The position numbers and the translations under genes are program-made. A model generated the notes under the pieces. The model worked only from the letters and a program-made list of their open reading frames with translations. It searched no databases and was not told the DNA's origin. From the IMG/VR virus record IMGVR_UViG_3300039355_000083: a DNA stretch of 64,000 bases. One strand, given 5' to 3'. Within the stretch, counting starts at the first letter, position 1; each line of letters starts with the position of its first letter. Source of the stretch: a virus. Of this stretch, positions 7,219 to 48,735 are shown in pieces.

Positions 7219-7275
7219 TCGCCATGTTTAAATAAAGTAACAAGTTAAATTAACTTTAATTAAAGAGAAAATGTA

Positions 7276-7626
7276 ATGAGGAACAAAAAAATGGTTAGAG
7301 AATTTGTAAAGAATGCAAGTAAAGTAGCTCAGAAAATCGATATTATGTTTGAAAAAGCAGCATATGACAATAAAACTGTTGCGGTACATTTCTCTGTAGG
7401 AGAAAAAGAATCTGCAATAATATCTCATATGCAGTTGAATCCAGTTAATATTACAGTAAATGATAATATTATCACTTTTGAAGAGGGAACAGCAGAGCAT
7501 TATATTGATATTTCTCAGTTTGATTCAGTCAAATGTGATGACGAGTGCGTTAACGATATCGCGGATGCAACAATTGATATGATGTGTGATCATTGGTCAG
7601 TACATTTTGATATTTTGACGATTTAA
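7276..7626 (+). CDS. hypothetical protein
   Basis: 116 aa ORF with an upstream RBS. Confidence 0.45.
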   Translation: MRNKKMVREFVKNASKVAQKIDIMFEKAAYDNKTVAVHFSVGEKESAIISHMQLNPVNITVNDNIITFEEGTAEHYIDISQFDSVKCDDECVNDIADATIDMMCDHWSVHFDILTI

Positions 7627-7650
7627 TTATACATAATACAGGAGGAAAAA

Positions 7651-8802
7651 ATGAACAAGATTGAAGAAATGAAAGCATTGGTTGAAAAACTTAATCAGTA
7701 CCGAGATGCTTATTATAATAATGCAGAGAGTATTGTTACGGATCATCAGTATGATGATCTGTGTGATCAGTTGGAAAAAATGGAAAAAGAAACAGGAATT
7801 ATTTTAAGTAATTCTCCAGTCCATAGTGTTGGATATGAAGTAAAAAGTAAATTAGAGAAAATTGAGCATTCACATTTAATGATGTCTCTTGATAAAACTA
7901 AAGATGTGAATATGCTTCGAAAATTTATTGGTGATAAAGATTCTTTGCTAATGTGTAAGATGGATGGATTGACAATTCTTTTGACGTATGAAGATGGAGA
8001 GCTGATCCAGGCTGAAACTCGCGGAAACGGCGTCACAGGAGAAATTATTACTCACAATGCAAAGGCGTTCGAAAATATTCCTATGCATATTAATCAGAAA
8101 GGCCACGTTGAAATCGAAGGAGAAGCTATTATTACATATACAGATTTTGAGAAAATTAATAATTTAATTAAACACGAAGAAGATAGATATAAGAATCCGC
8201 GAAATCTTGCTTCAGGATCAGTCAGACAGTTAGATAGTAAGGTAGCAGCCAAACGTCATGTTCGTTTTATAGTATGGAAAGTACCTGCCGGTATGGATGA
8301 ACTACCTTTAATGTCAGCAAGATTTGAAAAAGCAAGAGAACTTGGATTTGATATTGTACCTTATATTCGTGTATATAAAGAAAATCAGAATCTTGAAGAG
8401 CTTATTAATCTGTTAAAGGAAAAGGCAGCATACTTATCTTATCCAATTGATGGGCTTGTTGCTGCATATAATGATATCGCTTATGGATTATCACTTGGAG
8501 TCACAGATAAGTATCCACGTCACTCTCTGGCATACAAGTTTTATAATGAAGAATATATTACGACACTTATTAATATTGAATGGCAAGTTGGTAAAACCGG
8601 AATTATTTCTCCGATAGCCGTATTTGAACCTATCGAAATAGAAGGAAGTATTATAACAAAAGCTAGTTTATTTAATCTTTCTATATTAAAAGAAAAATTG
8701 GGGCATCCTTATGTTGGACAAAAATTATGGATAATTAAAGCAAACCAAGTAATTCCATATATTACAAAAGCAGAAATGGTGGATGATAAATGGATAATAT
8801 AA
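7651..8802 (+). CDS. ligA: NAD-dependent DNA ligase, N-terminal fragment (Ia + adenylation + OB domains)
   Basis: Adenylation motif 'CKMDGL' (KxDG) and a LigA-like N-terminus 'LNQYRDAYYNNAESIVTDHQYDDL'. The ORF ends at the expected OB/Zn-finger domain boundary. Confidence 0.8.
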   Translation: MNKIEEMKALVEKLNQYRDAYYNNAESIVTDHQYDDLCDQLEKMEKETGIILSNSPVHSVGYEVKSKLEKIEHSHLMMSLDKTKDVNMLRKFIGDKDSLLMCKMDGLTILLTYEDGELIQAETRGNGVTGEIITHNAKAFENIPMHINQKGHVEIEGEAIITYTDFEKINNLIKHEEDRYKNPRNLASGSVRQLDSKVAAKRHVRFIVWKVPAGMDELPLMSARFEKARELGFDIVPYIRVYKENQNLEELINLLKEKAAYLSYPIDGLVAAYNDIAYGLSLGVTDKYPRHSLAYKFYNEEYITTLINIEWQVGKTGIISPIAVFEPIEIEGSIITKASLFNLSILKEKLGHPYVGQKLWIIKANQVIPYITKAEMVDDKWII

Positions 8803-9350
8803 AAATAGAAATATGGAAAGATATAATAGGATATGAGGGGTATTATCAAATAAGTAATTTAGGTAATGTTAAAAGTTTGAATAGAATTGTAAAAAATAAA
8901 AATGGTTATAGAAATACTGGCGAAAGATTATTAAAAATTTATTTACCTAAAGATAGTCAGCATTATCCATTTGTTATTTTATGCAAGAATGGAAAAACTG
9001 AAAACAAATTAATACATCGTTTAGTAGCCACAGCATTTGTAACTAATGACAATCCTATACATAAAACACAGGTAAATCATATAGATGAAAATAAAATGAA
9101 TAATAGTTCTGATAATTTAGAATGGTGTACTCCTAAATATAATGCAGAATATGGAACAAGAATAGAACGTACTAAAAAATCTACAACAAATAATCAATCG
9201 TGGAAGCGCGTTTTATGCGAAGAAACAGGTAAGACATACAGGTCTATTCGTTCAGCGTCTATGGATACAGGTGATTGCGAACACACCATTGCAAGAATGT
9301 GTAACGGATTAAAAACTAAAAATCTAAAATACCATTGGAGGTATGTATAA
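8790..9350 (+). CDS. HNH homing endonuclease (NUMOD4 + HNH_3 type)
   Basis: N-terminal 'WKDIIGYEGYYQISNLGNVKS' (NUMOD4-like) and 'HRLVA...VNHIDENKMNNSSDNLEWCT' (HNH). It overlaps the ligA N-fragment stop and the C-fragment start in different frames. Confidence 0.75.
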   Translation: MDNIKIEIWKDIIGYEGYYQISNLGNVKSLNRIVKNKNGYRNTGERLLKIYLPKDSQHYPFVILCKNGKTENKLIHRLVATAFVTNDNPIHKTQVNHIDENKMNNSSDNLEWCTPKYNAEYGTRIERTKKSTTNNQSWKRVLCEETGKTYRSIRSASMDTGDCEHTIARMCNGLKTKNLKYHWRYV

Positions 9351-10222
9351 TGAACAATATAAAATTTATTCAAATCCCTGAAGTATGCCCGATTTGTGGT
9401 AAGCCGGTGTCTGTTGTGAAAGAAAATGATTCTGAAGTATTGATGTGCATGAATGCTGGATGCAAAGGCAAGCTTCTGGGTGAATTAAATGCTTTTGTAG
9501 GGAAAAAGGCCCATGATATTAATGGATTATCTGAGGCCACATTGCAGCTATTGATTGATACTGGGCTTGTGGCATCACCAATTGATCTGTATTATTTGAA
9601 GGATCATTCTACAGAATTGTCCAGATTGCCTAGAATGGGAACAAAGAAAATTGCGAATATTTTAGATTCTATTGAGTCTAGTAGGAATACCACCATAGAA
9701 AAATTTATTGTAGGATTAAATATTCCGTTAATTGGTGGTAGAGCTGCAAAGGATATTGCTAGATATGAAGAAATAAGAACTAGGGAATCAGGAATACTCT
9801 ATCCATTTGAAACTTTTATTAAAGATGCTGCTTCTGATTTTAATTTTACCTGTATTGAAGGATTAGGGACGGAGCGAAATATTTCTATCCATAGATATTT
9901 TAAGGAAAATTATGATTACGTTATTGCTTTGGCAGAACAGTTCATATTTTCGAAACTTAATAATGATAAAATATCTTCTGAAAGCGATTCATTGTCCGGA
10001 AAGAAATTCTGTATCACTGGGAAGTTACATATTTTTGCTAACCGGGATGAACTTGTGGCGGATATAGAATCAAAAGGAGGGAAAGTTGTGTCCGGAGTTA
10101 CAAAGGCAACTGATTATCTAATTACCAATGATAAAAACAGTGGATCTAGTAAAAATAAGAAAGCTTCTGAGTTGAATATTCCTATTATCAGTGAAGAAGA
10201 ATACAAAAACAAATTAAATTAA
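9350..10222 (+). CDS. ligA: NAD-dependent DNA ligase, C-terminal fragment (Zn finger + HhH + BRCT)
   Basis: Cys4 Zn finger 'CPICGKP...CMNAGCKGK', helix-hairpin-helix region and BRCT-like 'GKKFCITGKL'. ATG at 9350 overlaps the HNH stop (TAATG) and follows RBS GGAGG. Confidence 0.75.
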   Translation: MNNIKFIQIPEVCPICGKPVSVVKENDSEVLMCMNAGCKGKLLGELNAFVGKKAHDINGLSEATLQLLIDTGLVASPIDLYYLKDHSTELSRLPRMGTKKIANILDSIESSRNTTIEKFIVGLNIPLIGGRAAKDIARYEEIRTRESGILYPFETFIKDAASDFNFTCIEGLGTERNISIHRYFKENYDYVIALAEQFIFSKLNNDKISSESDSLSGKKFCITGKLHIFANRDELVADIESKGGKVVSGVTKATDYLITNDKNSGSSKNKKASELNIPIISEEEYKNKLN

Positions 10223-10260
10223 CTTTTGCTATTGACAAATGCAAATAATGGTGATATAGT
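10210..10260 (+). promoter_or_regulatory. sigma-A/sigma-70-type promoter with upstream AT-rich UP-like box
   Basis: AAATTAAATTAACTTTTGC then TTGACA (10232-10237), a 17-nt spacer and TATAGT (10255-10260). Nearly identical to the cassettes at 20294 and 39131. Confidence 0.6.
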
Positions 10261-10308
10261 TGACCTATCAAAACAAATTAGATTAACTCAATCAGAAAGG
10301 CATGAACA

Positions 10309-10941
10309 ATGATATGTTACTATTTAAAAGGGAAAAATGGAGAGTACATCGCAAGAGATTCAACAGGAAGAATCAAATTAGTATCTGATCTTGCTGATGC
10401 ACTCTTGGTTCCTGAAATTGAAAAGAAAAAGATTAAGGCAATTCAAGCAAATAATATTCCAGACGTATTAAAAAAATTTGGACCATATGAAATTTGTGAA
10501 ACCGATTATAATGGAGTTGAAGCAATTACAACAGATGATATAGTTGGTGAAATTATCGGTAGTATAAATGAATTTTCAAGTAAGATGAATGAAATTACTG
10601 ATTATTCAAAAGAACTTAATTCTATTATTTCATATACTGATTTACAAATTTCAGATATTTTGCATTATATTGAATTTCATAAGTTTTCTGCGGCAGAAGG
10701 ATATAAATTATGCAAAAAGCTGCAAGAGATTTGTGATAGACGAAGAGAAGCTAAGAATAAGATGCAAATTATAAATACAATGAAAATTCAATCATGTGCG
10801 AGCGTTTTATCTGGAAGTGCTACTAAAAGAATAGAAAAAATTGTGCCAGATAAAAAGTATACTCCAAGAGTATTTGATGAATTGTTCAAAAAGAATCAGT
10901 CTCGAATAAGAAAAGAAAAATCAGTGAAAATAAAAATTTAA
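10309..10941 (+). CDS. hypothetical protein
   Basis: 210 aa ORF downstream of the 10232 promoter. Confidence 0.5.
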   Translation: MICYYLKGKNGEYIARDSTGRIKLVSDLADALLVPEIEKKKIKAIQANNIPDVLKKFGPYEICETDYNGVEAITTDDIVGEIIGSINEFSSKMNEITDYSKELNSIISYTDLQISDILHYIEFHKFSAAEGYKLCKKLQEICDRRREAKNKMQIINTMKIQSCASVLSGSATKRIEKIVPDKKYTPRVFDELFKKNQSRIRKEKSVKIKI

Positions 10942-10964
10942 TTAAACAATAAGGAGATAAAAAT

Positions 10965-13031: not shown

Positions 13032-13064
13032 TACAATTTAATTAAACAAAGAAGGGAGAAAGTT

Positions 13065-13556
13065 ATGAAATTTAAAGAAGCATTTGAAGAAATGAAATCT
13101 GGAATTCCAGTAAAACTTCCGTCATGGGCGGGTTATTGGTGGTGGGATGAAGAATCCCAGACAATCCTTATGTACACAAAAGATGGCGGCTGTCTGGATA
13201 TAAGAGAAACACAGAATGTGGAGTATACGCTTCAGAATATTCTTTCCGATGAGTGGGTTTATGCGGATAGTCGGAACTGCCCAATACTTGGTGGAGAAGC
13301 AACATTCTCATTCGGAGAAGCGATTAAGTACCTGAAAAGAGGATTTAAAGTGGCACGTAAAGGCTGGAATGGAAAGAAACAGTACATTCAGCTTGCCACT
13401 GGGATTTCTTATAAGACTGCCGATAATGAGATTGTAAATTGTGAGCATGACGCAATCGGAAATAAAGCCATCGCTTTTGTAACATCTGGCGTACAGATGG
13501 GATGGCTTGCTACCCAGTCGGATATGCTCGCAGAAGACTGGATGTTTGTTAAATAA
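13065..13556 (+). CDS. tandem DUF2829-like protein (Tad2-like anti-Thoeris sponge candidate)
   Basis: Two copies of the DUF2829-style 'FxEAxxxxKxGxxVxRxxW' motif ('MKFKEAFEEMKSGIPVKLPSW' and 'FSFGEAIKYLKRGFKVARKGWNGKK'). C-terminal 'GWLATQSDMLAEDWMFV' matches the family hallmark 'WLxSQxDLLAEDW' as I recall it. Confidence 0.55.
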   Translation: MKFKEAFEEMKSGIPVKLPSWAGYWWWDEESQTILMYTKDGGCLDIRETQNVEYTLQNILSDEWVYADSRNCPILGGEATFSFGEAIKYLKRGFKVARKGWNGKKQYIQLATGISYKTADNEIVNCEHDAIGNKAIAFVTSGVQMGWLATQSDMLAEDWMFVK

Positions 13557-14151: not shown

Positions 14152-14898
14152 ATGAAAACATTTACAAAAAGAATTCTTTTACTTGCTTCGATACTCCTTA
14201 TTTGGAATATCACAGCAAAACACGTAAATCCCTTGTTCGTTCCGGAGCCAGTTACGGTATTTGATGATCTGATAGGCATGATACATACCGGACAGTTGAT
14301 TAAGGCAATTGAATATTCGTTTCTAAGAATAACTGCTGCTACATTTATATCTGGAGCAATAGCATTTCCTATAGCGATTCTGGTTTATAATTCCAGAATT
14401 GCTAAGGATATTCTTAATCCGATAATCAGTGTTATGCGATATATTCCGGTGACTGCATTTTATCCATTGCTTATTATGTGGTTCGGGATAGATGAAATGA
14501 TGAAAATTGTATTTTTGTTTATTGCAACATTCGTATATATGATGCCGTCAGTTGTATTATGCCTGGAGGAAGTGAACAACGATCTAATAGATACCGGACT
14601 TACAATTGGAATGAGCAAATTACAAACGATATGGAGAATCCAGATTCCGGCATCATTGCCAGGAGTATTAAATAGCTACATTATGATGTATGGAATTGGA
14701 TTTACATATATTGCAGTAGCTGAAACAATAAATGCTAAATATGGACTTGGATATATAATCCAGCAATCATCTTCCAGAGGAAGAACAGATTTAGTATTTA
14801 TGGCAATCATTATGATTATGATCATTAGTGTTATATTTGATTATGTGTCTAAATGGTTAGTAAGGAAGATTTTTAAATGGAGGTATATCAATGATTAA
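14152..14898 (+). CDS. ABC transporter permease (NitT/TauT, SsuC/TauC-like)
   Basis: 248 aa with about 6 predicted TM segments, BPD-transporter-like core, translationally coupled to the following ATPase. Confidence 0.7.
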
Positions 14899-15502
14899 AA
14901 TTCATGATTTATACACAGGATACAGTAGAGATAAACCACTTTTATCTGGATTTAATTACAATTTTGATAATAAGATCTATGGGATCCTTGGAGAATCTGG
15001 ATGTGGAAAGACAACTTTGCTAAGGACTGTTGCAGGATTGCTCAAACCGTTATCTGGAGAAATTATCATAGATAATAATCCGGTTACAAAAGCAAGTAAA
15101 AATGAAATATATATGATGCATCAGAACTATACTTCTTTTGATTGGTTAAATTGTCTTGACAATATACTAATTGCTAAAAAAGTTAAAGGCCATGTAGAAC
15201 CAGAAGATATAGAAGCAGCTAAGAAGATGCTTTATTTAGTTGGTCTGAATGGAAACGAAAATAAATATCCTAAGCAGCTGTCTGGAGGCATGAAACAACG
15301 GCTTGCGTTAGCCAGGACGTTATTTGCAAAACCAAAGATTCTTTTAATGGATGAACCATTGTCAGCACTGGATGCTGAGACACGAAGTAATATGCAATTG
15401 TTAATTATGGATTTACATAGGTTACTTGATAATACTGTGATCATGGTCACACACAGTGAATCAGAAGCAAAGATAATGTGTGATGAAATATTGAAATTTT
15501 AG
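14891..15502 (+). CDS. ABC transporter ATP-binding protein
   Basis: Walker A 'GESGCGKTT', ABC signature 'LSGGMKQR' and Walker B 'ILLMDEP'. Confidence 0.85.
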
Positions 15503-15514
15503 GAAGGAAATACG

Positions 15515-16048
15515 ATGGGAATTTTAAAAAACTTATTTGTGGAAGAAATACCGGATGAGACGCCTGATATTCCAGATATAGATACTGATTTTGACACAAC
15601 TGAGACTGACGTAGAGCTTGATTCAGTCAACACTGACACTTTGATTGATGATATTTACAGCCAGAATAATCTGGCAGATAAAACACAGTCAATTTTTAAA
15701 GTGGAAGAGTTAATAAAATCATTTCCAAAGGAAATGACGACAGAAACAAAAAGAAATTCAGTATTGGCAACACTTGGTGTATTTGGCTTGACAGTGACTG
15801 ATGTTGAGGCAGATGGAGAAAAAAGAGTTGATGTTTTAAGCGACATTCTCTCAAAGATTATTTGTGATTCTGAAGCTGTTGTTACTGAAAAAGAAAATGC
15901 TATTGAAGAACACAAAATGGAAATCGAGCGTCTGGAAAAGGAAATTGCTGATCAAAGAGCTGAAACAAAAACATCTGATGAAACTATTACTGCTGAAATT
16001 GACAGAATTAAAAATTTAATTAACTTTACTGTTGGAGGAAATGCATAA
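15515..16048 (+). CDS. acidic hypothetical protein
   Basis: 177 aa, highly acidic D/E/T-rich N-terminus with a coiled-coil C-terminus. Confidence 0.45.
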   Translation: MGILKNLFVEEIPDETPDIPDIDTDFDTTETDVELDSVNTDTLIDDIYSQNNLADKTQSIFKVEELIKSFPKEMTTETKRNSVLATLGVFGLTVTDVEADGEKRVDVLSDILSKIICDSEAVVTEKENAIEEHKMEIERLEKEIADQRAETKTSDETITAEIDRIKNLINFTVGGNA

Positions 16049-16785
16049 TGGAACTTGGTAAACTGATTTTTATTGTTGTAGTGGTTGTTATTGTATTGAT
16101 ACTGATTCTGTTTCCGGAAGCAAGAAAATTACTGTCTGGATTTACTAGATTATTTATCAAAGATATGGCAACCACACCAGAAGGAGCAGAGGCTATCTAT
16201 GAAGAAAAAATTGACCAGGCTCAGGAATCTTATAATAAAGCGGATAATGCATATAAGATTGCTGCTGGAAAATTAAGCAATGCACAGAAAGATCTCGATA
16301 GGAAAAGAAAAAGACTTATTAATGTTGAAGCTGAGTGTGAATCTCTTGTGAAAACAAATCAAATCGAACTTGCACAGTTAAAAGCAGAGGAAAGAGAAGA
16401 AATTCTTTCAGATATCCGCAGAGTTACCGGTTTGGTAAATGCCTATAAAGAAGCTACGGCCGCTGCAAAAGAGACACAGGAAAGGTGTGAAAAGAATCTT
16501 AGAAGTCTAAAGCGTGAAAGTAAAGAAGTTGTGGAGAATATGAAGGTAAAGAAGCAGCTTCAGGAAGTCTATGATGATATGGATGAACTGAAAAATGTCA
16601 CGGTAACAGATAAATTGCTTGATTCTGTTCGAGATAAAAACAGAGATCTGGATGCTATTGTGGAAGGATCTAAAGTAGTACACAATAATAAGATGTCTAC
16701 CAAACTTGAAAAGGCTGAAGCGGAAGCAAAAAAGAATAACAGCAATGATTATCTGAACAGCTTGAAAAAGAAATATAATAAATAA
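16048..16785 (+). CDS. membrane-anchored PspA/IM30-like coiled-coil protein
   Basis: N-terminal TM helix 'LIFIVVVVVIVLILILF', then an amphipathic start 'FTRLFIKDM...' and a long coiled coil laid out like PspA/Vipp1 (ESCRT-III-like). Confidence 0.4.
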   Translation: MELGKLIFIVVVVVIVLILILFPEARKLLSGFTRLFIKDMATTPEGAEAIYEEKIDQAQESYNKADNAYKIAAGKLSNAQKDLDRKRKRLINVEAECESLVKTNQIELAQLKAEEREEILSDIRRVTGLVNAYKEATAAAKETQERCEKNLRSLKRESKEVVENMKVKKQLQEVYDDMDELKNVTVTDKLLDSVRDKNRDLDAIVEGSKVVHNNKMSTKLEKAEAEAKKNNSNDYLNSLKKKYNK

Positions 16786-16796
16786 GGAGTAGTAAA

Positions 16797-17084
16797 ATGA
16801 AGAAAGCAAAAAGATTTAGATTAACTAAAGCAGCAAAAATTCTGATTATGGTTCTGATTGTAGCACTGCTTGGAGGAGGTATCTTTGCAGGAACACAGAC
16901 TGGAATGATTCAGACGAAGAAAGATAAATCAGTATCCGGTACTACTACATCAGAAACAGTCGCTAAAACAGAATCTACTTCAAATAATGAGGATGATGAC
17001 AAGAAAAACACTGTAAAGAAAGATGAAGCGAAAACTGCTGATGATAATGTTATTAATGTGTCATTAGATGAATGGATTGGTTAA
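16797..17084 (+). CDS. exon 1 of the substrate-binding lipoprotein/OmpA-fusion gene (signal anchor + linker)
   Basis: N-terminal TM/signal anchor 'ILIMVLIVALLGGGIFAG' followed by a T/S/D/K-rich linker. Ends '...DEWIG' directly at the proposed intron 5' splice site. Confidence 0.5.
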   Translation: MKKAKRFRLTKAAKILIMVLIVALLGGGIFAGTQTGMIQTKKDKSVSGTTTSETVAKTESTSNNEDDDKKNTVKKDEAKTADDNVINVSLDEWIG

Positions 17085-18319
17085 TTTCTAGCCCTTTTAC
17101 ATTGGTGACAATGTGATCGAACGCCTTTGAATTGCTGGAATTAAGGCTATACACGTAGCCACCCTAAAGCTTACTAAACTACAACATAATGATGAAATAC
17201 GCATAAGTGTGAATGTGGCGAAAGCAGAAAAAATTAGTAAGATGGCATAAGCTGAAATAAAAGCTTTTTCATTGAAATATGAGAAGGTGCTAAGTGCTGT
17301 AAGAATGGGGAATCAGCTTCCAAAATCCGAACAGGATAAGGTTCAACGAGTAAGAGCTTTTAAATTCGTTAAAGCCAGTGGAGGCGCATCTTATAAAAGA
17401 TGGTGATGTATTCTAATCTATATTGAAAAATATAGTGTTGTAACGTGTAAGGAGAATATAAAGAATTGGAGAAATATGTATACAAAATAGAGAATAACAT
17501 AAATCATAAGATTTATATAGGACAAACTAATAATTTAGAAAGACGTATTAAAGAGCATCGGCATGATAAACGCATGAATCATCCTATCTATAATGCAATA
17601 CATAAATATGGATGGGATAATTTTTCGGTAGAAACATTATATTTCGGAGAAGATTATAATACAAAAGAAAAGGAATATATTAAATTATATCGCAGTAATG
17701 AGAAAGAGTTCGGATATAATATTCAAAATGGTGGGCAAGATAGTTCTGGAGAAAATAATCCGCAAAGTAAGTTAACACAACAGCAGGTTGATTTATTGAT
17801 GAAAGATTTAAAAGAAACGAACGTTGAATTTGATAAGCTTGCCGAAAAGTATAATGTATCAATAAAAACTATTCGAAATGTTAATACCGGAATAGCTTGG
17901 AGAAAAAATGATATCACTTATCCTATCAGAGAACCTTTAATATGTCCATCTATAAATCATGAAAAAATTAAATTAATCAAAAAAATGTTACGAGATGGCT
18001 TTTATAGTATAGACTATATTGCTAGAATGTTTAAAGTAGAAAGATATGTAATTTTAAACATTAATAAAGGTGTTACATATTATGATGAAAACGATGAATA
18101 TCCTATCAGAGAATTAGGATTAACTCATGATGAATTAGAAGAAATTATTAAATTGTTAGAAGATCCTAGCATTCCTATGAAGTATATTGCTAAATTATAT
18201 GGTCGAGCTGTTACTCAGATTTATAGAATTAATAATGGTGGCAGTTGGCATAATCCAAATATAAAATATCCTATACGGAAATCAACAGTTCAGCGTAACG
18301 AACTGAATCAATAGTAATG
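17082..18319 (+). mobile_element. candidate group I intron carrying a GIY-YIG homing endonuclease ORF
   Basis: GC-enriched ~380-nt non-coding core (17085-17465) carrying group-I P/Q/R/S-like elements ('AATGGGGAATCAGC', 'AATCCGAACAGG', 'GTTCAACGAGTAAG', 'AAAAATATAGTG'). A P1 hairpin GGTTA/TAGCC pairs U17081 with G17091. A G at 18314 or 18319 gives an in-frame exon junction. Confidence 0.55.
17466..18314 (+). CDS. GIY-YIG homing endonuclease
   Basis: 'YVYKIENNINHKIYIGQTNNLERRIKEH' contains the GIY...YIG motif with the catalytic R/E. TTG start follows RBS AAGGAG. Confidence 0.8.
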   Translation: MEKYVYKIENNINHKIYIGQTNNLERRIKEHRHDKRMNHPIYNAIHKYGWDNFSVETLYFGEDYNTKEKEYIKLYRSNEKEFGYNIQNGGQDSSGENNPQSKLTQQQVDLLMKDLKETNVEFDKLAEKYNVSIKTIRNVNTGIAWRKNDITYPIREPLICPSINHEKIKLIKKMLRDGFYSIDYIARMFKVERYVILNINKGVTYYDENDEYPIRELGLTHDELEEIIKLLEDPSIPMKYIAKLYGRAVTQIYRINNGGSWHNPNIKYPIRKSTVQRNELNQ

Positions 18320-19663
18320 TGGAAATCCATTATTGACGCTAATGGCGGCTTAACAACTCAGTCAGGTTCCATCTATGATAAACTTGGCGTAAAAGTAAAT
18401 ATTAATGTTATTAACGACGCAACACAATCAAGTAATGCTCTGATTAAAGGAGATCTGAACGCTGCAGGTTATACAATCAACAGAACTGCATTCTTATCTA
18501 AGAAATTCACTGATGCCGGAAAAGAAGTGGTGATGCCGTATATTACAAATTACTCAAATGGTGGTGACGGTATTATTGCGAAGTCTTCTATTCAGAATGT
18601 AAATGATCTTGTAAATGCTAAAATTGGTGTACCAGAATTCTCTGAAGCTCAAACACTTGTAGTATGGTTTGTAAATAATTCTGATCTTTCTAATAAAGCC
18701 AAAGCAAAGATTATTGATAATCTTGTATTGTTCTCAACACCAGATGATGCAGCAAAAGCATTTTTTGCCGGTCAGATTGATGTTGCAGCAACCTGGGAAC
18801 CATACCTGACTCAGGCAAAGAATATGACAGACGCACATGTATTATTTAGCACTGCAAGTTCTTCAAATCTTGTTATGGATGGAATTCTGTTTGATAAGAA
18901 ATTTGCAGAAGCACATGCAGATGTAGTGGAGAAATTTATCCAGGGATCTCTGGAAGCTGCAGATATGTATAATACAGAATTTAATGCAATCCGTGAAGTA
19001 ATGCCTATGTTCAATACTGCATCAGATGAAGATATTGTAGCAAATACGGAGTCTGCAAAACTGACAACATGGAAAGATAATTTAGATCTGTTAAATGGAA
19101 CTGCAAAGACAATTTATTCAGATATGTGTAACGTATGGACATCAATTGGTGAGTCTGTAAATGCTGATCTTGTTAATAGTATTTTTGATGATACATATAT
19201 TAATGCTATTTCAGATAAATTTAGTGCAACGAAAGTGTCTAATACAAATACTGTAAAGGTTACAGAGGATAATAAAAAGGAAATTCAGGATACTGAAGCT
19301 TTATTACAGGGTAAAGCATCTGTTACATTTATTCAGAATACGGCAAAATTCTCTGATTCTGCTGCAGCATCTAAAGAACTTAATAAGTTTATTGACATTG
19401 CAAAGGTACTTGACGGTGCAATCATTGAAATTGCAGGAAATACAGACCCTAATCCGGAATCAGATCCTGAAGACGAGTATAATCAGAAGTTGTCTTTACA
19501 AAGAGCAGAAGCTGTTAAAAACTATTTTGTTATGAATGGAATTTCTAACGGACGTATTGTAGTAGTTGGAAATGGATCCAGCAATCCTGTTGTTGATAAT
19601 GACACTGATGAACATCGCGCAATGAATAGACGTACTGATGTATCATTTAAGATCATTGAGTAA
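18317..19663 (+). CDS. exon 2: NMT1/SsuA-type substrate-binding domain fused to a C-terminal OmpA-like peptidoglycan-binding domain
   Basis: SBP-like motifs ('GQIDVAATWEPYL') and no N-terminal signal peptide of its own. OmpA C-domain signature 'IAGNTDP...LSLQRAEAVKNYF...NRRTDV'. Confidence 0.65.
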   Translation: MWKSIIDANGGLTTQSGSIYDKLGVKVNINVINDATQSSNALIKGDLNAAGYTINRTAFLSKKFTDAGKEVVMPYITNYSNGGDGIIAKSSIQNVNDLVNAKIGVPEFSEAQTLVVWFVNNSDLSNKAKAKIIDNLVLFSTPDDAAKAFFAGQIDVAATWEPYLTQAKNMTDAHVLFSTASSSNLVMDGILFDKKFAEAHADVVEKFIQGSLEAADMYNTEFNAIREVMPMFNTASDEDIVANTESAKLTTWKDNLDLLNGTAKTIYSDMCNVWTSIGESVNADLVNSIFDDTYINAISDKFSATKVSNTNTVKVTEDNKKEIQDTEALLQGKASVTFIQNTAKFSDSAAASKELNKFIDIAKVLDGAIIEIAGNTDPNPESDPEDEYNQKLSLQRAEAVKNYFVMNGISNGRIVVVGNGSSNPVVDNDTDEHRAMNRRTDVSFKIIE

Positions 19664-19777
19664 GGAGTAATTATGGTTGCTTTAAATATAGAAACATTTG
19701 TTGTATGCCTTGTTATTGCTTTTCTGGCAGGTATTCTGGTTACAAAAATTAAATTAAAGAAATAAAGGAGAAAAATT

Positions 19778-20299
19778 ATGGGATTTACATTATTTGGAGA
19801 AAAATATAAATATGAAGTAGACAGTATTAATATTGGGATTTTTTGTCCAGATGGGACATTATTAATAGTTTTAAAACTTAAAGATGGTACATATAAATCA
19901 ATTGATGTTAATCTTGGAGCAGAAAAATATAAGTCATTATGCAAAGAGAATAACATTACAAACAATGTGCCGGTTCTTGTTACACAAGAACATGTTAATA
20001 AATTAGATAAAGAAATAAAACCTAAGTACAAATGGGGAGACTGGAAAGAAGGTTACACTTTTTTTATGGATCCATTTTCTCGTAGAGAAAAACTATTAGT
20101 ATATAATGTTAGAACTAATGGTAAGAGAGTGCAGGTAGAATTCGACGGTGTAAAAGCTATGGCTTCTTGTAATATTGAAGCAGGAGATCAATTTGATTAT
20201 AAGTTTGGTAGGGAACTGGCAGAGCGAAGATTGATTGCGAAATTGATTGAGAAACGTGCAAATTCATATTATATAAGCAAAATCAACAAAACAAATTAA
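19778..20299 (+). CDS. hypothetical protein
   Basis: 173 aa ORF with RBS AAGGAG. Confidence 0.5.
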   Translation: MGFTLFGEKYKYEVDSINIGIFCPDGTLLIVLKLKDGTYKSIDVNLGAEKYKSLCKENNITNNVPVLVTQEHVNKLDKEIKPKYKWGDWKEGYTFFMDPFSRREKLLVYNVRTNGKRVQVEFDGVKAMASCNIEAGDQFDYKFGRELAERRLIAKLIEKRANSYYISKINKTN

Positions 20300-20523: not shown

Positions 20524-20603
20524 GTTTGGCAAGTATTTTATACAAATATACTCCAGCCGAATTGCAGAGAAATATAATTTAATTATACAAAAAGGAGATA
20601 AAA

Positions 20604-38368: not shown

Positions 38369-39138
38369 AGTCAGAATTATTTCAGAATGAATTAAAAACG
38401 ATTCAATCAGACGATATCCGTGATTTTGCAAAAGTTGTCTTGGATGATGCTCCTGACTATTTTTTCAAGGTTGCGGCGAGTTCTACAGGTAAATATCACC
38501 CGGCATATGCGCTGGGTGATGGAGGTTTAATGCGCCATACTAAAGCAGTATTAAGGATTTACAACTATATCATCGGATTAGAACAGTACCAGAATCAGTT
38601 TGATGAGAGATGGATAGATCTTGGACGTGTTGCTTGTTTGGCACATGATATTCAAAAGTCTGGTACTGCAGAAACATATGAAGAAAAGGCAAAGGATGGA
38701 AAAAAGGTGTTTACTGTATTTAATCATCCGTTGTTGGCAGCAGAATATATTCGTAATTATAAAGGATTATATCTCGAAGATGATGAACTTGAGATTATTG
38801 CTGATGCTGTTTCGTCTCATATGGGACAATGGAACACAAGTGATAGAGAAAGTATTGTCTTACCAAAGCCAAAATCACAGTTAGGGAAAATTGTACATGT
38901 AGCAGATTATTTGGCTTCCAGAAAAGACATTGATATTTCTTTTAAAGATGATACTGATGCATATGATTTACCGGATATTGAGACATACAAATGTCCATAC
39001 AAAAAGCATAAGGATGAATTACTGACAGATGTTGCAAAGACAGATCCTGAGTATCTGGAGTGGCTACATGAAAATGTTAATATGAGAGAACCTATGAAAA
39101 CATTCGTAAATGAACTTTTAAAAAATAAAACAAATTAA
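38365..39138 (+). CDS. HD-domain phosphohydrolase
   Basis: HD motif 'ACLAHDIQK' plus conserved His ('KYHPAY', 'SSHMGQW'). A (d)NTP/nucleotide hydrolase is plausible. Confidence 0.55.
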   Translation: MKSELFQNELKTIQSDDIRDFAKVVLDDAPDYFFKVAASSTGKYHPAYALGDGGLMRHTKAVLRIYNYIIGLEQYQNQFDERWIDLGRVACLAHDIQKSGTAETYEEKAKDGKKVFTVFNHPLLAAEYIRNYKGLYLEDDELEIIADAVSSHMGQWNTSDRESIVLPKPKSQLGKIVHVADYLASRKDIDISFKDDTDAYDLPDIETYKCPYKKHKDELLTDVAKTDPEYLEWLHENVNMREPMKTFVNELLKNKTN

Positions 39139-39181
39139 ATTAACTATTACTATTGACATCAGAAACCTATAGTGCTATTAT
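39131..39181 (+). promoter_or_regulatory. sigma-A-type promoter upstream of the nucleotide-metabolism operon
   Basis: CAAATTAAATTAACTATTAC then TTGACA (39153-39158), 17-nt spacer and TATTAT (39176-39181). Confidence 0.6.
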
Positions 39182-39229
39182 AATGGCACAGGGAAAACAA
39201 ATTAAATTAACTCAAGGAGATATGTAGAC

Positions 39230-43475: not shown

Positions 43476-43543
43476 TAAGCTATTAAAGCTTTGATATAAA
43501 AATTTAATTAAACAAAACACGGAGAAAAAGGAGAACTAAAAAC

Positions 43544-44524
43544 ATGGCAGAAATTACAATGAAATCAACAAAAGCAGAAATTATGGAAGCGTATAAGGCA
43601 GCGGTGGAGAAACTTGATACAAGAGACCGAATGATTGATGATCCTGCAAAAGAAGCAGCAGCAAAACTGAAAACAGAAGTAATCAAATCTGCAGATGCAA
43701 CAGCAAAAGAGGATATTTTTAATCCAGAGATTATCAAGAAATACAATGATCTTACAGAAGCTATTGAAATTAAACAGCTTGAGTTAGATGAATTATATGG
43801 TATTGAGACAAAAGCAAATGCTATGGCAGCTATGATCAATGCTTATAAAGAGAAAAATGAAGAGTTAAAAGAGGCTCAGGCAGCGAAAGAAGCAGAGATT
43901 GAAGCTGAATTGGGTGAGAAAAAAGATACACTGAAAGCTGAAATTGAGGCACTGAAGCAGCAGAAACAGGAAATTATTTGTTCTATCAATGCAGAAGCTA
44001 AAGCAAGAGAAAATGAAATTAAATTAACTCGTAGCCGTGAGGAAGATGAATACACCTATAATCTGAAACGCAGTCGTAAAGCTGAAAATGATAAATGGGA
44101 AGATGAGAAAGCTGCTAGAGAAAAGATTTTAGAACTTAGAGAAACAGCGGCTCTTGAGAAAGAAACAGAATTGAATGCAAAAGCTGATCATGTAAAGGAA
44201 TTAGAAGCAAAAGTAGAAGAGATTCCGACATTGATTGCAGCAGCAACAGAAGAAGGTATTAAAAAAGGTAAAGCCGATGCTGATAAATCAAATGCGTTTG
44301 AGGTCAGAGCGCTTAAGAAAGATGCAGAATATCAGAAACAGCTTCTGGAAGATAAAAATGAAAGACTTGCAGAGGATCTGGCTAATGCGAGAGCAGAAAA
44401 AGTTGAATTACAGCAGAAACTTGACGATGCATATGCTCAGATGAGAGAACTTGCTGCTAAGACTGTAGAATCTACCGGTGGAGTTAAAATTCTGAACGGT
44501 CAGACTCAGCAGAATAATAAATGA
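43544..44524 (+). CDS. coiled-coil protein
   Basis: 326 aa, A/E/K-rich heptad-like sequence throughout. Confidence 0.45.
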   Translation: MAEITMKSTKAEIMEAYKAAVEKLDTRDRMIDDPAKEAAAKLKTEVIKSADATAKEDIFNPEIIKKYNDLTEAIEIKQLELDELYGIETKANAMAAMINAYKEKNEELKEAQAAKEAEIEAELGEKKDTLKAEIEALKQQKQEIICSINAEAKARENEIKLTRSREEDEYTYNLKRSRKAENDKWEDEKAAREKILELRETAALEKETELNAKADHVKELEAKVEEIPTLIAAATEEGIKKGKADADKSNAFEVRALKKDAEYQKQLLEDKNERLAEDLANARAEKVELQQKLDDAYAQMRELAAKTVESTGGVKILNGQTQQNNK

Positions 44525-44532
44525 TAATTTAA

Positions 44533-44565
44533 TTATACGGTATGCGTAAGAAAACGCATACCGTA
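44533..44565 (+). terminator. stem-loop (terminator-like, weak U-tract)
   Basis: 9-bp stem CGGTATGCG/CGCATACCG with an 8-nt loop right after the coiled-coil gene. The downstream run is not U-rich. Confidence 0.3.
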
Positions 44566-47404: not shown

Positions 47405-47854
47405 ATGTCAGAACTTACAGAAAGTGTTAAGGGATACATTGAAGGATTGCAAGATGTATTACAAAGAAAATATCAAATTTCAGAAGATAAGGCTTTAAAT
47501 ATGATTACTTCTTCTTATATTATGGATTCTCTTATAGATTACCCAGAGGAGACGTTACATGATGACATTGAAGCACATGCAGATAATATATATGAAGACC
47601 AAGTATCAAAAACAGAACGGTTATTGTTAGAGGCCGGATACGAGGGAACGATATTCTTTACAAATCCATCTTATGAAGATGCGTTTCTTGGTATTTCTTC
47701 TGATGATAGAGCAATATATGATTACGAAAAAATGGTTGAATCTTTAGTTAACCATGAGGATATGACAGAAGATGAGGCTAGAGAATTTATAGATTACAAT
47801 GCGACGTTCTATATTGAAGGTGGACCAATTATTTTGTATAGACTGGAGGAATAG
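47405..47854 (+). CDS. hypothetical acidic protein
   Basis: 149 aa ORF. Confidence 0.45.
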   Translation: MSELTESVKGYIEGLQDVLQRKYQISEDKALNMITSSYIMDSLIDYPEETLHDDIEAHADNIYEDQVSKTERLLLEAGYEGTIFFTNPSYEDAFLGISSDDRAIYDYEKMVESLVNHEDMTEDEAREFIDYNATFYIEGGPIILYRLEE

Positions 47855-47856
47855 TA

Positions 47857-48213
47857 ATGCCGGAACGTAACAGAGGGTATTTGAGAAAGCAAAGACTACG
47901 AAATATTGAACGTAGAAAAAAATTAATAAGTCAACGAGAACTTATGTATCATGGATATAAAACTTTGAACGATCCTGATTTTAAAGAGGGGATGTTACAT
48001 AAAGGACACAGTGGACGACTTGGCATGGGTGGAACTGCAGTAAAAACTAATACTCGTAAAGGACATGCTTCATATCGACATAAAGGTGCTTATGGTCCAG
48101 CAGATAATTATTCAAGACATGATAAGCAGCAAGTTGAAGATGGAGCACAGCAAATTAAAGAATGGGAGAATAAAAATGAAAAAAGAGAAAAAGAAAGTTC
48201 TGATTGTGATTGA
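47857..48213 (+). CDS. hypothetical basic protein
   Basis: 118 aa, K/R/H/G-rich. Confidence 0.4.
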   Translation: MPERNRGYLRKQRLRNIERRKKLISQRELMYHGYKTLNDPDFKEGMLHKGHSGRLGMGGTAVKTNTRKGHASYRHKGAYGPADNYSRHDKQQVEDGAQQIKEWENKNEKREKESSDCD

Positions 48214-48727
48214 TGTACAGAATGATTTTGTAACCGGTTCACTTGGTACACCGGAAGCCCAAGCTATTATTCCGAATGTAAAAGAGAAATTTGATGAATA
48301 TAAGAATAATAAGAACTATGTAATTCTTACAAAGGATACTCATCATTCAGATTACGCAGATACTTCAGAGGGCAGAAAACTTCCTGAACATTGTATGTAT
48401 GGTACTAAAGGTTGGGAAATTGTTGATGAACTTGATTATAAAAATCTCGATAGTTTTATGGTATGTTGTAAATCTACTTTTGGATTTGATGACTGGAATT
48501 GGGAAGAAATATTTAATACTACAGATGGTTCTTTATTAGATATTGAAATTATTGGCATATGCACAGATATCTGTGTTATTACGAACGCTCTTTTGATTAA
48601 AACTTATTATCCAGAGGCAAAAATCACAGTTGATGCATCATGCTGCGCAGGATCAACACCGGAAAAGCATAAAGCGGCTCTTGATGTAATGGAAAGCTGC
48701 CAGATTAATGTAATCAATAGAAATTAA
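48176..48727 (+). CDS. pncA: nicotinamidase/pyrazinamidase (isochorismatase fold)
   Basis: 'KKVLIVIDVQNDFVTGSLG' is the canonical PncA N-terminus (catalytic Asp). The Cys-containing C-terminus 'GICTDICV' is present. Start moved to the ATG with RBS GGGAGAA. Confidence 0.75.
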   Translation: MKKEKKKVLIVIDVQNDFVTGSLGTPEAQAIIPNVKEKFDEYKNNKNYVILTKDTHHSDYADTSEGRKLPEHCMYGTKGWEIVDELDYKNLDSFMVCCKSTFGFDDWNWEEIFNTTDGSLLDIEIIGICTDICVITNALLIKTYYPEAKITVDASCCAGSTPEKHKAALDVMESCQINVINRN

Positions 48728-48735
48728 ATTAAACA

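Follow-up and report, generated by a model that had tools for sequence, protein, structure and literature searches.

A co-oriented motif in the early arm of an SPβ-like gut phage, probably the operator and stoperator-like sites of an MrpR-like repressor

The question raised by this locus is what a short motif, repeated ahead of gene after gene, does in the phage and which protein reads it. The window, i.e., the whole stretch of 64,000 nucleotides analysed here, is the early/replication arm of a temperate phage of gut Clostridia that is SPβ-like and approximately 175 kb in size. The temperate lifestyle is indicated by an integrase gene at 62792 and by a relative located inside a 499-kb Ruminococcus scaffold. 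A preliminary description presented the repeat as one palindromic motif found 10–25 nt ahead of 14 or more start codons, and offered two options for it, an operator bound by a dimeric regulator or a middle/late promoter specific to the phage. Throughout, the phage and its relatives are referred to by the four clusters of MrpR-like proteins that they encode, i.e., G1 (the phage studied here), G2a, G2b, and G3, the last including the Ruminococcus scaffold.

The recurrence of the motif is real. With up to two mismatches, AAATTTAATTAWACA has 24 matches in the window, 22 of them on the + strand, compared with 4.0 ± 2.0 in dinucleotide shuffles, none of which (0/100) reached 24. In a position weight matrix scan, strong copies, defined by a score of at least 18 bits, number 13, and all 13 lie on the + (coding) strand (binomial P = 1e-4), while 12 of the 13 are intergenic or extend over the final codons of a gene (binomial P = 2e-13). 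The coordinates given previously were all correct to within 2 nt, but the copies at 2042, 16011, and 19746 and those within coding sequence at 8160 and 44014 had been missed. Two sub-classes are distinguished, namely A, AATTWAATTAWACA, and B, the 16-mer ACAAATTAAATTAACT (six copies, four of them exact), which have only the core AATTAAATTA in common. The earlier account lumped the two, its copies at 7241, at 39197, and in three early promoters being of type B. The copies and the promoters associated with them are as follows.

2042–2056, + strand: A-type copy with one mismatch here, perfect in about 20 G1 genomes
2071–2099, + strand: σA-type promoter, its −35 box 14 nt downstream of the preceding A copy
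4985–5013, + strand: σA-type promoter of the yopQ/mrpR-like genes, TAGACA-17-TATAAT with TG; partial B element AAATTAACTTTGC in the spacer, + strand
7240–7266, + strand: overlapping degenerate copies, B-like (7240–7255) and A-like (7252–7266), between the mrpR-like stop codon, which they closely follow, and gene 7276
7619–7633, + strand: A copy extending across the end of the preceding gene, with the ligase gene's AGGAG 6 nt on; the orthologous junction in G2a carries the G2a motif
8160–8174, + strand: A copy within the DNA ligase coding sequence, conserved at the DNA level across G1 even with differing flanking codons
10209–10288, + strand: B–σA promoter–B cassette, promoter TTGACA-17-TGaTATAGT at 10232–10260; upstream B (+) ends 7 nt before −35, downstream B (+, 10273–10288) has one mismatch; G2a and G2b carry their own motifs in an identical layout
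10934–10948, + strand: A copy overlapping the stop codon of gene 10309–10941, AGGAG 3 nt on
13034–13048, + strand: A copy 2 nt past a stop codon, RBS 5 nt on; retained before alternative downstream genes in different G1 genomes
16011–16025, + strand: A/B hybrid copy, AATTTAATTA plus ACT, GGAGG of gene 16048 8 nt on
19746–19760, + strand: A-like copy with an AAAGA end, AGGAG of gene 19778 5 nt on
20291–20427, + strand: B–σA promoter–A cassette (B 20291–20306, promoter 20314–20342, A 20413–20427); tRNA-Gln 11 nt downstream of A, no RBS
20575–20589, + strand: A copy after tRNA-Gln, AGGAG of the AAA ATPase gene 3 nt on
21723–21737, + strand: A copy abutting a stop codon, with a 152-nt leader to tRNA-Leu; the orthologous position in G2a is occupied by the G2a motif
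24500–24514, + strand: A copy 2 nt past a stop codon, ahead of the RNA ligase gene
27035–27049, + strand: A copy heading the replication operon; G2a motif at the orthologous junction
38337–38351, + strand: A copy lying in the final codons of the RecD2-like gene, with the HD-domain gene's AGGAG 3 nt on
39130–39212, + strand: B–σA promoter–B cassette before the ThyX-like gene, promoter TTGACA-17-TGcTATTAT at 39153–39181; upstream B (+) ends 7 nt before −35, downstream B (+) ends 2 nt before AGGAG
43500–43514, + strand: A copy before gene 43544; G2a motif at the orthologous junction
44014: copy within coding sequence
44525–44539, + strand: A copy with an ACG end, abutting a stop codon and followed by a 9-bp hairpin and then the RBS
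48721–48735, + strand: last A copy of the window, overlapping the end of gene 48065–48727, GGAGG 2 nt on

Motif A follows a stop codon and precedes the RBS or tRNA that comes next, and the standalone copies lack a −35/−10 pair, as was originally described. The distance to start codons had been overstated: about 12 copies lie 9–29 nt from one, and the exceptions are 20413 before tRNA-Gln, 21723 before the tRNA-Leu leader, 24500 at 121 nt from the start, and 44525 at 40 nt with the hairpin between. The palindrome does not hold as a feature either. The palindromic form TTTAATTAAA is present only where position 6 of the 15-mer is T and position 12 is A, these two W positions flip freely and without compensation between orthologous sites, and ACA, the most informative part, falls outside the palindrome. 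The palindrome is thus incidental rather than a selected property. The site is asymmetric and strictly oriented, so the step from palindrome to dimeric regulator is unsupported.

Motif B flanks σA-type promoters, and the spacing from B to −35 is exactly 7 nt in three of three cases. Each of the five strong extended −10 σA-type promoters of the window is accompanied by an element, either next to it or within its spacer, and three are flanked by one on each side; the placement of copies in the UP-element position of early promoters had been recognized correctly. The fixed 7-nt distance is a DNA-level constraint and speaks against a role in RNA, where the motif would serve a phage or host endoribonuclease as a processing or cleavage site, or act on translation as an operator or enhancer within polycistronic early transcripts. 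Such a role would account for the presence of the motif on the transcribed strand only, precisely between stop codon and next RBS, and for its flanking of tRNAs, which need processing; furthermore, intrinsic terminators are almost absent from the motif-bearing region, so long polycistronic RNAs are likely. However, the motif precedes tRNAs as well as ORFs and is therefore not a translation signal, no Rfam family is found at the sites, no candidate RNase co-varies with the motif, and the SPβ counterpart is bound as DNA by MrpR. A function in RNA is highly improbable.

That counterpart, termed SPBRE, is the repeat bound by the master repressor MrpR/YopR of the Bacillus subtilis prophage SPβ (Lazarevic, 1999; Kohm et al., 2023, PMC10516654). 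Binding of MrpR to the 15-bp SPBRE is documented by ChAP-seq and EMSA, and MrpR represses PaimR and PyosX (PMC10516654). A homologous gene module is found in the window, in the gene order of SPβ yopP-yopQ-yopR (3959–7218), and is divergent between clades.

3959–4987, + strand: tyrosine recombinase gene in the yopP position (Pfam Phage_integrase, 9e-27)
5026–6306, + strand: YopQ-like, DndB-family gene (Pfam DndB; BLASTP to SPβ YopQ, E = 1e-13), immediately upstream of the repressor gene
6307–7218, + strand: MrpR/YopR-like repressor gene, the candidate motif reader (303 aa, recombinase fold, catalytically degenerate)

The protein encoded at 6307–7218 matches Pfam PF22822 MrpR_N_CB (E = 1.9e-16; 60.9 bits, cutoff 27) and SPβ YopR (BLASTP, E = 5e-9), and full-length phmmer matches are obtained to the PDB entries of YopR/MrpR, 8bj6, 8bjv, and 8a0a, and also to 9rd5. 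Identity to MrpR/YopR is 28%, over the N-terminal domain only (PDB E about 1e-5). The catalytic Lys, His, Arg-II, and His/Trp positions are missing; likewise, most recombinase catalytic residues are absent in MrpR (PMC10516654). This recombinase-fold protein, rather than the small zinc-ribbon proteins suggested previously, is the candidate reader. On sequence evidence, the motif probably represents the operator and stoperator-like sites of this repressor, which would define immunity types. We infer that the MrpR-like protein binds the A and B sites, that binding represses, and that the junction copies affect elongation, the link from protein to site being built on the N-terminal homology and on covariation across four clades.

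The four MrpR-like clusters correspond to four different motifs, set in the same three contexts and at orthologous junctions, and this test spans those four clades only. The MrpR-like protein is only 33–40% identical between clades, compared with about 76% for neighbouring genes. G2a and G2b constitute a natural swap, in which a block 87–100% identical is common to both while the repressor module and the motif differ. The difference by clade is repeated at the operon region of a YonO-type RNA polymerase, which the phage encodes on the other strand at an independent locus, mirroring the MrpR peak at yonP-yonO in SPβ. The repressor-family gene, the SPBRE-like layout, and the change of the motif set with the ortholog in four clades together support the operator option of the preliminary description.

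Other proteins also co-vary with the motif, namely the YopP-like and YopQ-like proteins, a 188-aa protein, and a 210-aa protein (gene 10309–10941, the first gene after the B–promoter–B cassette) composed of a beta domain and a coiled coil. The sites could therefore be operators or roadblocks read by the 210-aa protein or the YopP-like recombinase, or A and B could have separate readers. The clade divergence of these proteins is as great as that of the MrpR-like protein (34–35% identity for the coiled-coil protein, 42–50% for the YopP-like protein), the DNA-binding architecture of a recombinase is intact in the YopP-like protein, and two readers are possible because G1 has two discrete sub-classes and the sister clades one. 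Against this, a single motif serves both contexts in G2a, G2b, and G3, the coiled-coil protein has no recognisable DNA-binding fold and no ortholog detected in G3, although G3 carries a motif set, and experimental precedent for binding such repeats exists only for MrpR (PMC10516654). A reader other than the MrpR-like protein is quite improbable.

Comparison of about 30 G1 genomes reveals a footprint, with 5 of 192 motif columns varying compared with 130 of 883 other columns (P = 2.5e-7), a variability about 6-fold lower in the motif than around it; in the cassette at 20291–20427, B is invariant and the 4–6 nt between B and −35 are hypervariable. Such purifying selection on 14–16 specific bases is left unexplained if the repeats are recombination linkers or boundary sequences that promote module shuffling, or remnants of it, with no regulatory reader. 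An identical A copy does precede alternative downstream genes or tRNAs across G1 genomes, and an orphan G2b-type site lies at a recombination boundary in a G2a genome, but mosaic junctions are an expected by-product of repeated operators, and strict −35 spacing, promoter bracketing, and replacement of the whole set by clade are likewise unaccounted for. The linker explanation is barely credible.

The promoter option is unlikely, but fits several observations. Motif A would be a phage-specific promoter with a very short leader, used by the YonO-type RNA polymerase, by an undetected sigma factor, or by host polymerase with a phage activator, and B would be a variant in tandem with early promoters. 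The motif is strictly co-oriented with genes, precedes tRNAs and ORFs, and heads plausible transcription units, e.g., the replication operon at 27035 (AAA_24, DnaB-like, PD-(D/E)XK, DnaE, and RecD2-like genes); standalone copies have no −35/−10 boxes, terminators are scarce, and promoter and encoded polymerase could co-vary between clades. However, a scan of 50 window proteins reveals no sigma factor or RNA polymerase (38 further ORFs, most of them at 49–62 kb, lie outside the scan), and the 210-aa protein was rejected as a sigma factor since its beta domain and coiled coil are not sigma-like. SPβ YonO has one start site serving a single late operon, early genes being YonO-independent (PMC5467207), and by analogy the polymerase of this phage would likewise depend on a single late promoter. 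The promoter interpretation is weak on these two grounds. Moreover, at least 30 copies lie among early and replication genes and before the polymerase's own operon, bracketing of σA promoters at fixed spacing is an operator layout and odd for tandem promoters, and the YonO-type protein is 74–78% identical between clades, similar to its neighbours, although the motif is completely different. The T4 late promoter TATAAATA with gp55, the T7-like 23-bp promoters, and the SPO1 gp28 and gp33-34 promoters resemble the motif as short co-oriented repeats with short leaders, but they require a dedicated sigma factor or polymerase and do not bracket host-type promoters on both sides at fixed spacing; by contrast, the homologous SPβ element is experimentally a repressor site.

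By analogy, the motif set is most likely the functional counterpart of SPBRE rather than a new kind of promoter. Both phages are large temperate Firmicutes phages with yopP-Q-R-like and replication synteny, a YonO-type polymerase, and a homologous, catalytically degenerate recombinase-fold repressor, and in both the repeats are AT-rich, asymmetric, about 15–20 bp long, and always oriented with transcription, and have so far been seen only in the early half of the genome. SPBRE was re-derived from the SPβ genome as 11 oriented intergenic copies, which are found 7 nt upstream of −35 at aimR, flanking a promoter on each side at yonX, and 3–6 nt upstream of the RBS at yopM, yopV, and yonX. Each of these placements, and that ahead of the late-polymerase operon, is matched here, and the promoter at 4985–5013 with AAATTAACTTTGC in its spacer resembles the TAGACA-SPBRE-TATAAT promoters of SPβ. 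The sequences are unrelated (AATTWAATTAWACA and ACAAATTAAATTAACT versus ACAAATACAAAWAATATGTAT), and the density is about 4–5 times that of SPβ, there being 19 or more copies at junctions or promoters (22 when three degenerate copies are counted) within 49 kb, compared with 11 in 134 kb. In distant prophages that carry MrpR, from Paenibacillus and Niallia, exact k-mer comparison revealed no obvious set of repeats. The two sub-classes, the gut Clostridium-class host instead of Bacillus, and the tyrosine rather than serine recombinase as integrase also differ from SPβ. Most copies here are promoter-less junction sites, whereas those of SPβ are mostly promoter-associated, five lying inside promoter spacers; hence a roadblock role of junction copies is without direct precedent in the MrpR family.

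A further parallel is provided by the operator/stoperator sites of L5 and other Cluster A mycobacteriophages (Brown, 1997; Mavrich and Hatfull, 2019, PMC6550527; McGinnis, 2022, PMC9283540), with more than 20 asymmetric sites of about 13–15 bp in short gaps between genes as well as at early promoters, orientation strictly tracking transcription, and consensus and repressor co-evolving to give differing immunity specificities among otherwise related phages. The repressors are unrelated, an HTH plus 'Stoperator' domain monomer in L5 versus a recombinase-fold protein here; host phylum and phage lineage also differ, and elongation block with orientation dependence is demonstrated for L5 and would apply here by analogy.

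In the prophage state, the MrpR-like repressor on B copies would shut off early initiation at σA-type promoters, blocking from the UP-element position 7 nt upstream of −35 and from just past the start site. On oriented A copies, which are inserted stoperator-like between one stop codon and the following RBS or tRNA, it would keep read-through and spurious transcripts from entering each block downstream. The regulatory switch proposed earlier would be right in spirit, but between lysogenic and lytic states rather than between early and late transcription. Together, A and B may keep silent about 75 kb comprising early, replication, and nucleotide-metabolism genes, as well as the operon that encodes the YonO-type late RNA polymerase. 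The immunity type of each phage would be set by the motif sequence, sister clades representing different repressor alleles with matching motif sets.

The recurrent motif of the window is real and highly non-random. The pattern AAATTTAATTAWACA is matched 24 times in the window at no more than two mismatches, as against 4.0 ± 2.0 matches expected from dinucleotide-preserving shuffles, a count reached in none of 100 shuffles. The + strand has 22 of the 24 matches and also all of the long ORFs, which cover ~95% of the window. With a position weight matrix built from twelve copies and a threshold of at least 18 bits, 13 sites were detected, all 13 on the + strand; 12 are intergenic or overlap the last codons of a gene, and the copy at 8160 is the sole strong site deep within a coding sequence (binomial P = 2e-13 for location and 1e-4 for strand). 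The copy coordinates listed in the preliminary description are accurate to within 2 nt, but the single motif assumed there separates into two. Motif A, a 15-mer located at gene junctions, has the conserved block AATTWAATTAWACA with sharp edges, and its asymmetric ACA end is its most informative part. The copies at 7241 and 39197, together with those in what were called three early promoters, belong to motif B, a distinct 16-mer (ACAAATTAAATTAACT) flanking σA-type promoters; it has six copies in the window, four of them exact and all on the + strand, and 17 matches at no more than three mismatches against 4.9 expected. The window thus holds at least 19 junction or promoter copies, or 22 when three degenerate ones are counted. 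The core, described as a perfect palindrome, is one only in copies with T and A at the two W positions. Dyad symmetry is not under selection, because the W positions flip between orthologous sites without compensation, and the idea of a palindromic site read by a dimer was discarded, the informative ACA end lying outside the palindrome.

At a typical junction, the order is the stop codon (overlapping the motif or 0–7 nt away from it), the motif, 2–6 nt, AGGAG, and the start codon, and the majority of A copies have no promoter close by. Four A copies are placed in atypical contexts.

Copies of motif A in atypical contexts
20413: 11 nt before tRNA-Gln, with no ribosome-binding site
21723: ahead of the tRNA-Leu leader
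24500: 121 nt from the next start codon
44525: followed directly by a hairpin

By consensus scans, neither σ70-type promoters nor terminators are in overall excess in the window. Non-coding DNA does contain five strong extended −10 σA-type promoters, and each of them adjoins or contains an element.

Strong σA-type promoters, by position of the −35 box
2071: a copy of motif A 14 nt upstream of the −35 box
4985: partial motif B in the spacer of a TAGACA-type promoter, which drives the yopQ-like and mrpR-like genes
10232: motif B on each side
20314: motif B upstream and motif A downstream
39153: motif B on each side

The distance from the upstream B to the −35 box is exactly 7 nt in three of three promoters, which places B in the position of an UP element. 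Such bracketing of σA promoters at fixed spacing is not promoter-like and argues against the motif being a phage-specific promoter in its own right, a reading with which the orientation of the copies and their lack of −35/−10 boxes do agree. An RNA-level signal is contradicted by the same fixed DNA spacing to −35 boxes, by the copies ahead of tRNAs, and by the absence of any Rfam family at the sites.

Two copies lie within coding sequences, an A copy in the ligase gene (8160-8174) and a B-like copy in the gene at 43544-44524 (44014-44029). Both are kept at the DNA level across G1, the clade of the window phage, and the ligase copy is kept even in the fetched locus L048, where the flanking codons differ; the two may therefore be functional sites rather than chance matches. 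Positions 44540-44563, between the A copy at 44525 and the ribosome-binding site, form a 9-bp GC-rich hairpin (GGTATGCGT-aagaaa-ACGCATACC), in which substitutions among G1 genomes are found in the loop or at a stem position still allowing G-U; it is not a classic terminator, as there is no T-tract. At 20439-24052, four tRNA genes (Gln-TTG, Leu-CAA, Met-CAT, and Lys-TTT) are interspersed with copies and small ORFs, and the tRNA behind the same A copy (the 20413 position) differs among G1 genomes.

A candidate reader of these elements is encoded at 6307-7218 (+). Its 303-aa product matches Pfam PF22822 ("MrpR N-terminal core-binding domain"; E = 1.9e-16, 60.9 bits with a cutoff of 27) and YopR, the MrpR repressor of the Bacillus phage SPβ (BLASTP E = 5e-9), and its residues 1–286 match the YopR/MrpR PDB chains 8bj6, 8bjv, and 8a0a, and also 9rd5. 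When the catalytic positions in Table 3 of PMC10516654 were mapped through the alignment to YopR, Lys corresponded to a gap, His to Glu, Arg-II to Asn/Ile, and His/Trp to Ile, and only the acidic residue and Tyr are retained. The MrpR-like protein has no match to Pfam Phage_integrase, whereas both true recombinases in the window do. Of the two genes 5′ of it, one is for a tyrosine recombinase and the other for a DndB-like protein with homology to SPβ YopQ (E = 1e-13), so that the order of the module is that of SPβ yopP-yopQ-yopR; further along, the replication genes follow the same order as SPβ yorG to yorL. The two intact tyrosine recombinases are separate, and either is a candidate integrase: one is at 3959-4987 in the YopP position, and the other, at 62792-64000, has an N-terminal DNA-binding domain of the Tn916 type and runs off the window end.

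MrpR is the master repressor of SPβ, has a tyrosine-recombinase fold with most catalytic residues lost, and binds the repeated 15-bp element SPBRE in ten SPβ early promoter regions, as detected by ChAP-seq and EMSA (PMC10516654). Re-derivation of SPBRE here from the SPβ genome gave, approximately, ACAAATACAAAWAATATGTAT; its 11 intergenic copies all have the orientation of the gene downstream.

Placement of SPBRE copies in SPβ
aimR: 7 nt upstream of the −35 box
yonX: either side of the promoter
yopM, yopV, and the second yonX copy: 3–6 nt upstream of the ribosome-binding site
yorE, yorM, yorZ, yosX, and yonP: within the spacer of TAGACA-17-TATAAT promoters

These are the contexts of motifs A and B, including that of the partial B in a TAGACA-type promoter. 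The window phage likewise encodes a PF22822 recombinase-fold protein with its catalytic residues mostly lost and likewise has an asymmetric ~15-bp repeat between early genes, co-oriented with transcription; in G1 too, elements are located at σA-type early promoters and at the yonO-type polymerase operon. The SPBRE core AATATGTAT and flank ACAAATACAAA are absent from the window, and its motifs are unrelated to SPBRE in sequence, so the element would be a diverged counterpart and not SPBRE itself.

Comparison of related phages links the motifs to the MrpR-like gene. With two anchor proteins, about 90 IMG/VR loci were collected, on contigs of up to 177 kb. All loci with at least 93% anchor identity (G1, about 35 contigs) carry both A and B, A on the + strand only and B with at most one match on the other strand; neither is present in any locus at 79% identity or less. 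The sister clades have motifs of their own at orthologous junctions.

Motifs of the sister clades
G2a: ATAATGTAAAATTTRAAA, 12 copies, all on one strand
G2b: TAATGWTTTAATCAAAA
G3: TCAATAATAAATTTGAT

All three motifs occur alone before a ribosome-binding site, before a tRNA, and flanking the same σA-type promoters. In relatives at 64% or less, the stop codon and ribosome-binding site abut with nothing between them, and no MrpR-like gene is present within the fetched region. The MrpR-like orthologs form exactly four clusters, which correspond to the four motif types; they are near-identical in G1 and share 33–40% identity between clades, against about 76% for neighbouring genes. G2a and G2b have in common a 7-kb block that is 87–100% identical, whereas their yopP/Q/R-like modules are only 43%, 50%, and 37% identical and their motifs are also different; by sequence comparison, this pair is a natural swap of repressor module and motif. 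Across orthologous non-coding regions of G1, the invariance of the motifs and −35/−10 boxes contrasts with variation in the 4–6 nt that separate B from −35 and in the flanks of A; 5 of 192 columns are variable within motifs, as against 130 of 883 elsewhere (Fisher P = 2.5e-7). Repeats serving as recombination linkers would account for the mosaic junctions of these phages, but would leave both this footprint and the replacement of whole motif sets unexplained. On a G2a contig (locus L037, IMGVR_UViG_3300045988_167206), a lone "orphan" site of the G2b type at position 12083 lies exactly at the border of a block 95-100% identical to G2b, and has the appearance of a scar left by recombination, through which a heterologous operator was imported.

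Tracking of the motif type with the MrpR-like allele in four clades and at two independent loci points to the MrpR-like protein as the probable reader. A different reader is possible, as the YopP-like, YopQ-like, and coiled-coil proteins and one 188-aa protein co-vary with the motif as strongly, and the two sub-classes A and B in G1 alone make a second reader possible as well.

The second of the two loci is the polymerase operon. About nine further junction copies, again co-oriented, are found on G1 contigs 10–24 kb upstream of the window start, and one copy on the opposite strand at about −30 kb is oriented correctly for the operon that it heads. This operon encodes an anti-repressor-like (Ant-like) protein, a 572-aa protein, and a 954-aa protein that matches phrog_8308 (E = 1.2e-87), the family of which SPβ YonO is the archetype (1220 bits); the 954-aa protein had no BLASTP match to YonO, and the homology is visible only through the PHROG profile. 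An MrpR ChAP-seq peak lies at yonP-yonO in SPβ (PMC10516654). In G2a the polymerase operon region has the G2a motif, and in three G2b contigs it has that of G2b, so that the covariation holds at an independent locus on the opposite strand. In IMGVR_UViG_3300045988_158059 (loci L334/L376, about 83-98 kb), the 954-aa YonO-type single-chain RNA polymerase has a DFDSD motif; with this phrog_8308 protein, YonO-type polymerases are present in large gut Clostridia prophages.

The preliminary description had left open an operator or a promoter. The operator half is supported by the likeness to SPBRE/MrpR, and the promoter half is not supported, no cognate σ factor or RNA polymerase having been found in the 50 window proteins scanned; of the 38 ORFs outside that scan, most are located at 49–62 kb and about 26 are shorter than 120 aa. 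The co-varying 210-aa early protein (10309-10941) has no σ-like fold: its AlphaFold model (pLDDT 78) comprises a small beta domain and a long coiled-coil hairpin, and Foldseek against the PDB gave nothing below E=0.15. The YonO-type polymerase shows about the same conservation between clades as is seen for other genes; in SPβ, its homolog starts at a single late promoter, early genes being YonO-independent (PMC5467207).

Outside these clades, MT835469.1, the sole megablast match in the phage collection, has neither motif A nor an MrpR-like gene in its whole sequence and shares only scattered genes, and is therefore useless as a whole-genome proxy. In exact-pattern scans of IMG/VR (the 15-mer, and the motif plus GGAG), the matches listed were crowded with chance matches in AT-rich contigs, and also included copies on G1 contigs from beyond the window. 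Exact k-mer counts in 20-kb loci of distant MrpR-bearing prophages (Paenibacillus, Niallia, and a MAG) gave no clear repeat set. In the Paenibacillus sp. QZ-Y1 prophage (locus L225), ACAATAAAATAATACAT stands directly before ribosome-binding sites at 14793 and 15868, with two or three copies in the locus adjoining the distant MrpR-like gene, and may be another lineage-specific SPBRE-like element. Recurrent k-mers in two more distant relatives were set aside as tandem iteron-like arrays, another kind of feature unrelated to the motif under study: GTTATCAAAAAAGATAA is repeated about 6-7 times at 13353-13800 of L054 and TTCAAATAATT 4 times at 1128-1290 of L053, and these arrays may be replication origins.

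Judged from sequence, the window comes from a large phage and represents its early/replication arm. The genes in it include those for a DnaE-type polymerase, RecD2-like and DnaB-like helicases, NrdD, NrdG, a ThyX-like protein, an NAD-dependent ligase, an RNA ligase, NAMPT, four tRNAs, and, at the window end, a candidate tyrosine integrase. The NAD-dependent DNA ligase seems split into adenylation and OB domains (7651-8802) and a BRCT domain (9335-10222), with an HNH/NUMOD4 homing-endonuclease gene (8790-9350) between the parts; G2a has no HNH gene, and its ligase is a single 668-aa ORF. At 17085-18314, a GIY-YIG + HTH_7 homing-endonuclease-like ORF comes after 381 nt of non-coding DNA, which recalls the layout of a mobile intron or of a free-standing homing cassette; Rfam detected no intron family there at the gathering threshold. 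A host-like cargo block (14152-19663) without counterpart in G2 or G3 includes the permease and ATPase of an ABC transporter, together with a 448-aa protein that has NMT1-like substrate-binding and OmpA domains. Genes of NAD/ADP-ribose and counter-defence type at 13065-13556, 22571-23350, 48065-48727, and 53715-55190 encode a Tad2-like anti-Thoeris domain protein, an ADP-ribosylglycohydrolase, an isochorismatase-family (nicotinamidase-like) protein, and NAMPT, and the set suggests NAD+ replenishment or anti-defence functions. Furthermore, 16.9 kb of the G3 relative are found with 100% identity within a 499-kb Ruminococcus sp. AM36-2AA scaffold; this position and the candidate integrase support a temperate lifestyle, and the match indicates a host among gut Clostridia.

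In the best-supported reading, the A and B copies would be the operator set of the MrpR-like repressor. At early promoters, B occupies the αCTD/UP-element position and a second copy the initial transcribed region, a layout that fits looping, or else occlusion combined with a roadblock. The A copies without a promoter have a likeness to the stoperators of L5-type mycobacteriophages. L5-type stoperators are more than 20 asymmetric 13-mers at promoters and short intergenic spaces, their orientation is tied to transcription, repression is lost when a site is inverted, and they co-evolve with the repressor, resulting in immunity groups (PMC9283540). The window phage also has more than 20 asymmetric, transcription-oriented sites at promoters and junctions. 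A monomer with HTH and Stoperator domains (an L5 gp71 homolog) was not detected among the proteins scanned, and the candidate reader has a recombinase fold; the element is therefore at most stoperator-like in its working, outside that family, and the analogy is functional only, as the repressor families are unrelated. The stoperator strategy is, to our knowledge, known only from actinobacteriophages. From two features, promoter-less placement at junctions and uniform orientation, we infer an orientation-dependent block of elongation. The element is interpreted as a diverged counterpart of SPBRE/MrpR whose density and placement are stoperator-like, and the SPβ-like gut prophages that carry it are a clade not characterised before. 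A bolder reading, which we advance tentatively and with some doubt, is that an MrpR-family repressor independently evolved a stoperator strategy, in which at least 30 oriented, promoter-less junction sites, as elongation roadblocks or synapse-like bridges, silence a 75-kb early region, and replacement of the whole set has given rise to four or more immunity types in gut prophages that otherwise recombine.

These observations extend the MrpR/SPBRE lysogeny switch from Bacillus SPβ to abundant ~175 kb human-gut Clostridia prophages, a group found on dozens of IMG/VR contigs and in one Ruminococcus isolate, for which an operator set and its repressor are now predicted. In annotating this group of phages, the motif can serve as a marker of the early region and of the proposed immunity type. 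The four repressor alleles and four matching motif sets would be natural specificity swaps, with which the reading of an asymmetric site by a recombinase fold, and the origin of superinfection-immunity groups, could be studied. Given how densely the promoter-less copies are set at junctions, and their uniform orientation, MrpR-type repressors may block elongation as well, which would be convergent with mycobacteriophage stoperators and is directly testable. If the stoperator reading is true, SPBRE/MrpR would be one sparse case of a much wider, denser, and modular mode of silencing in large Firmicute prophages.
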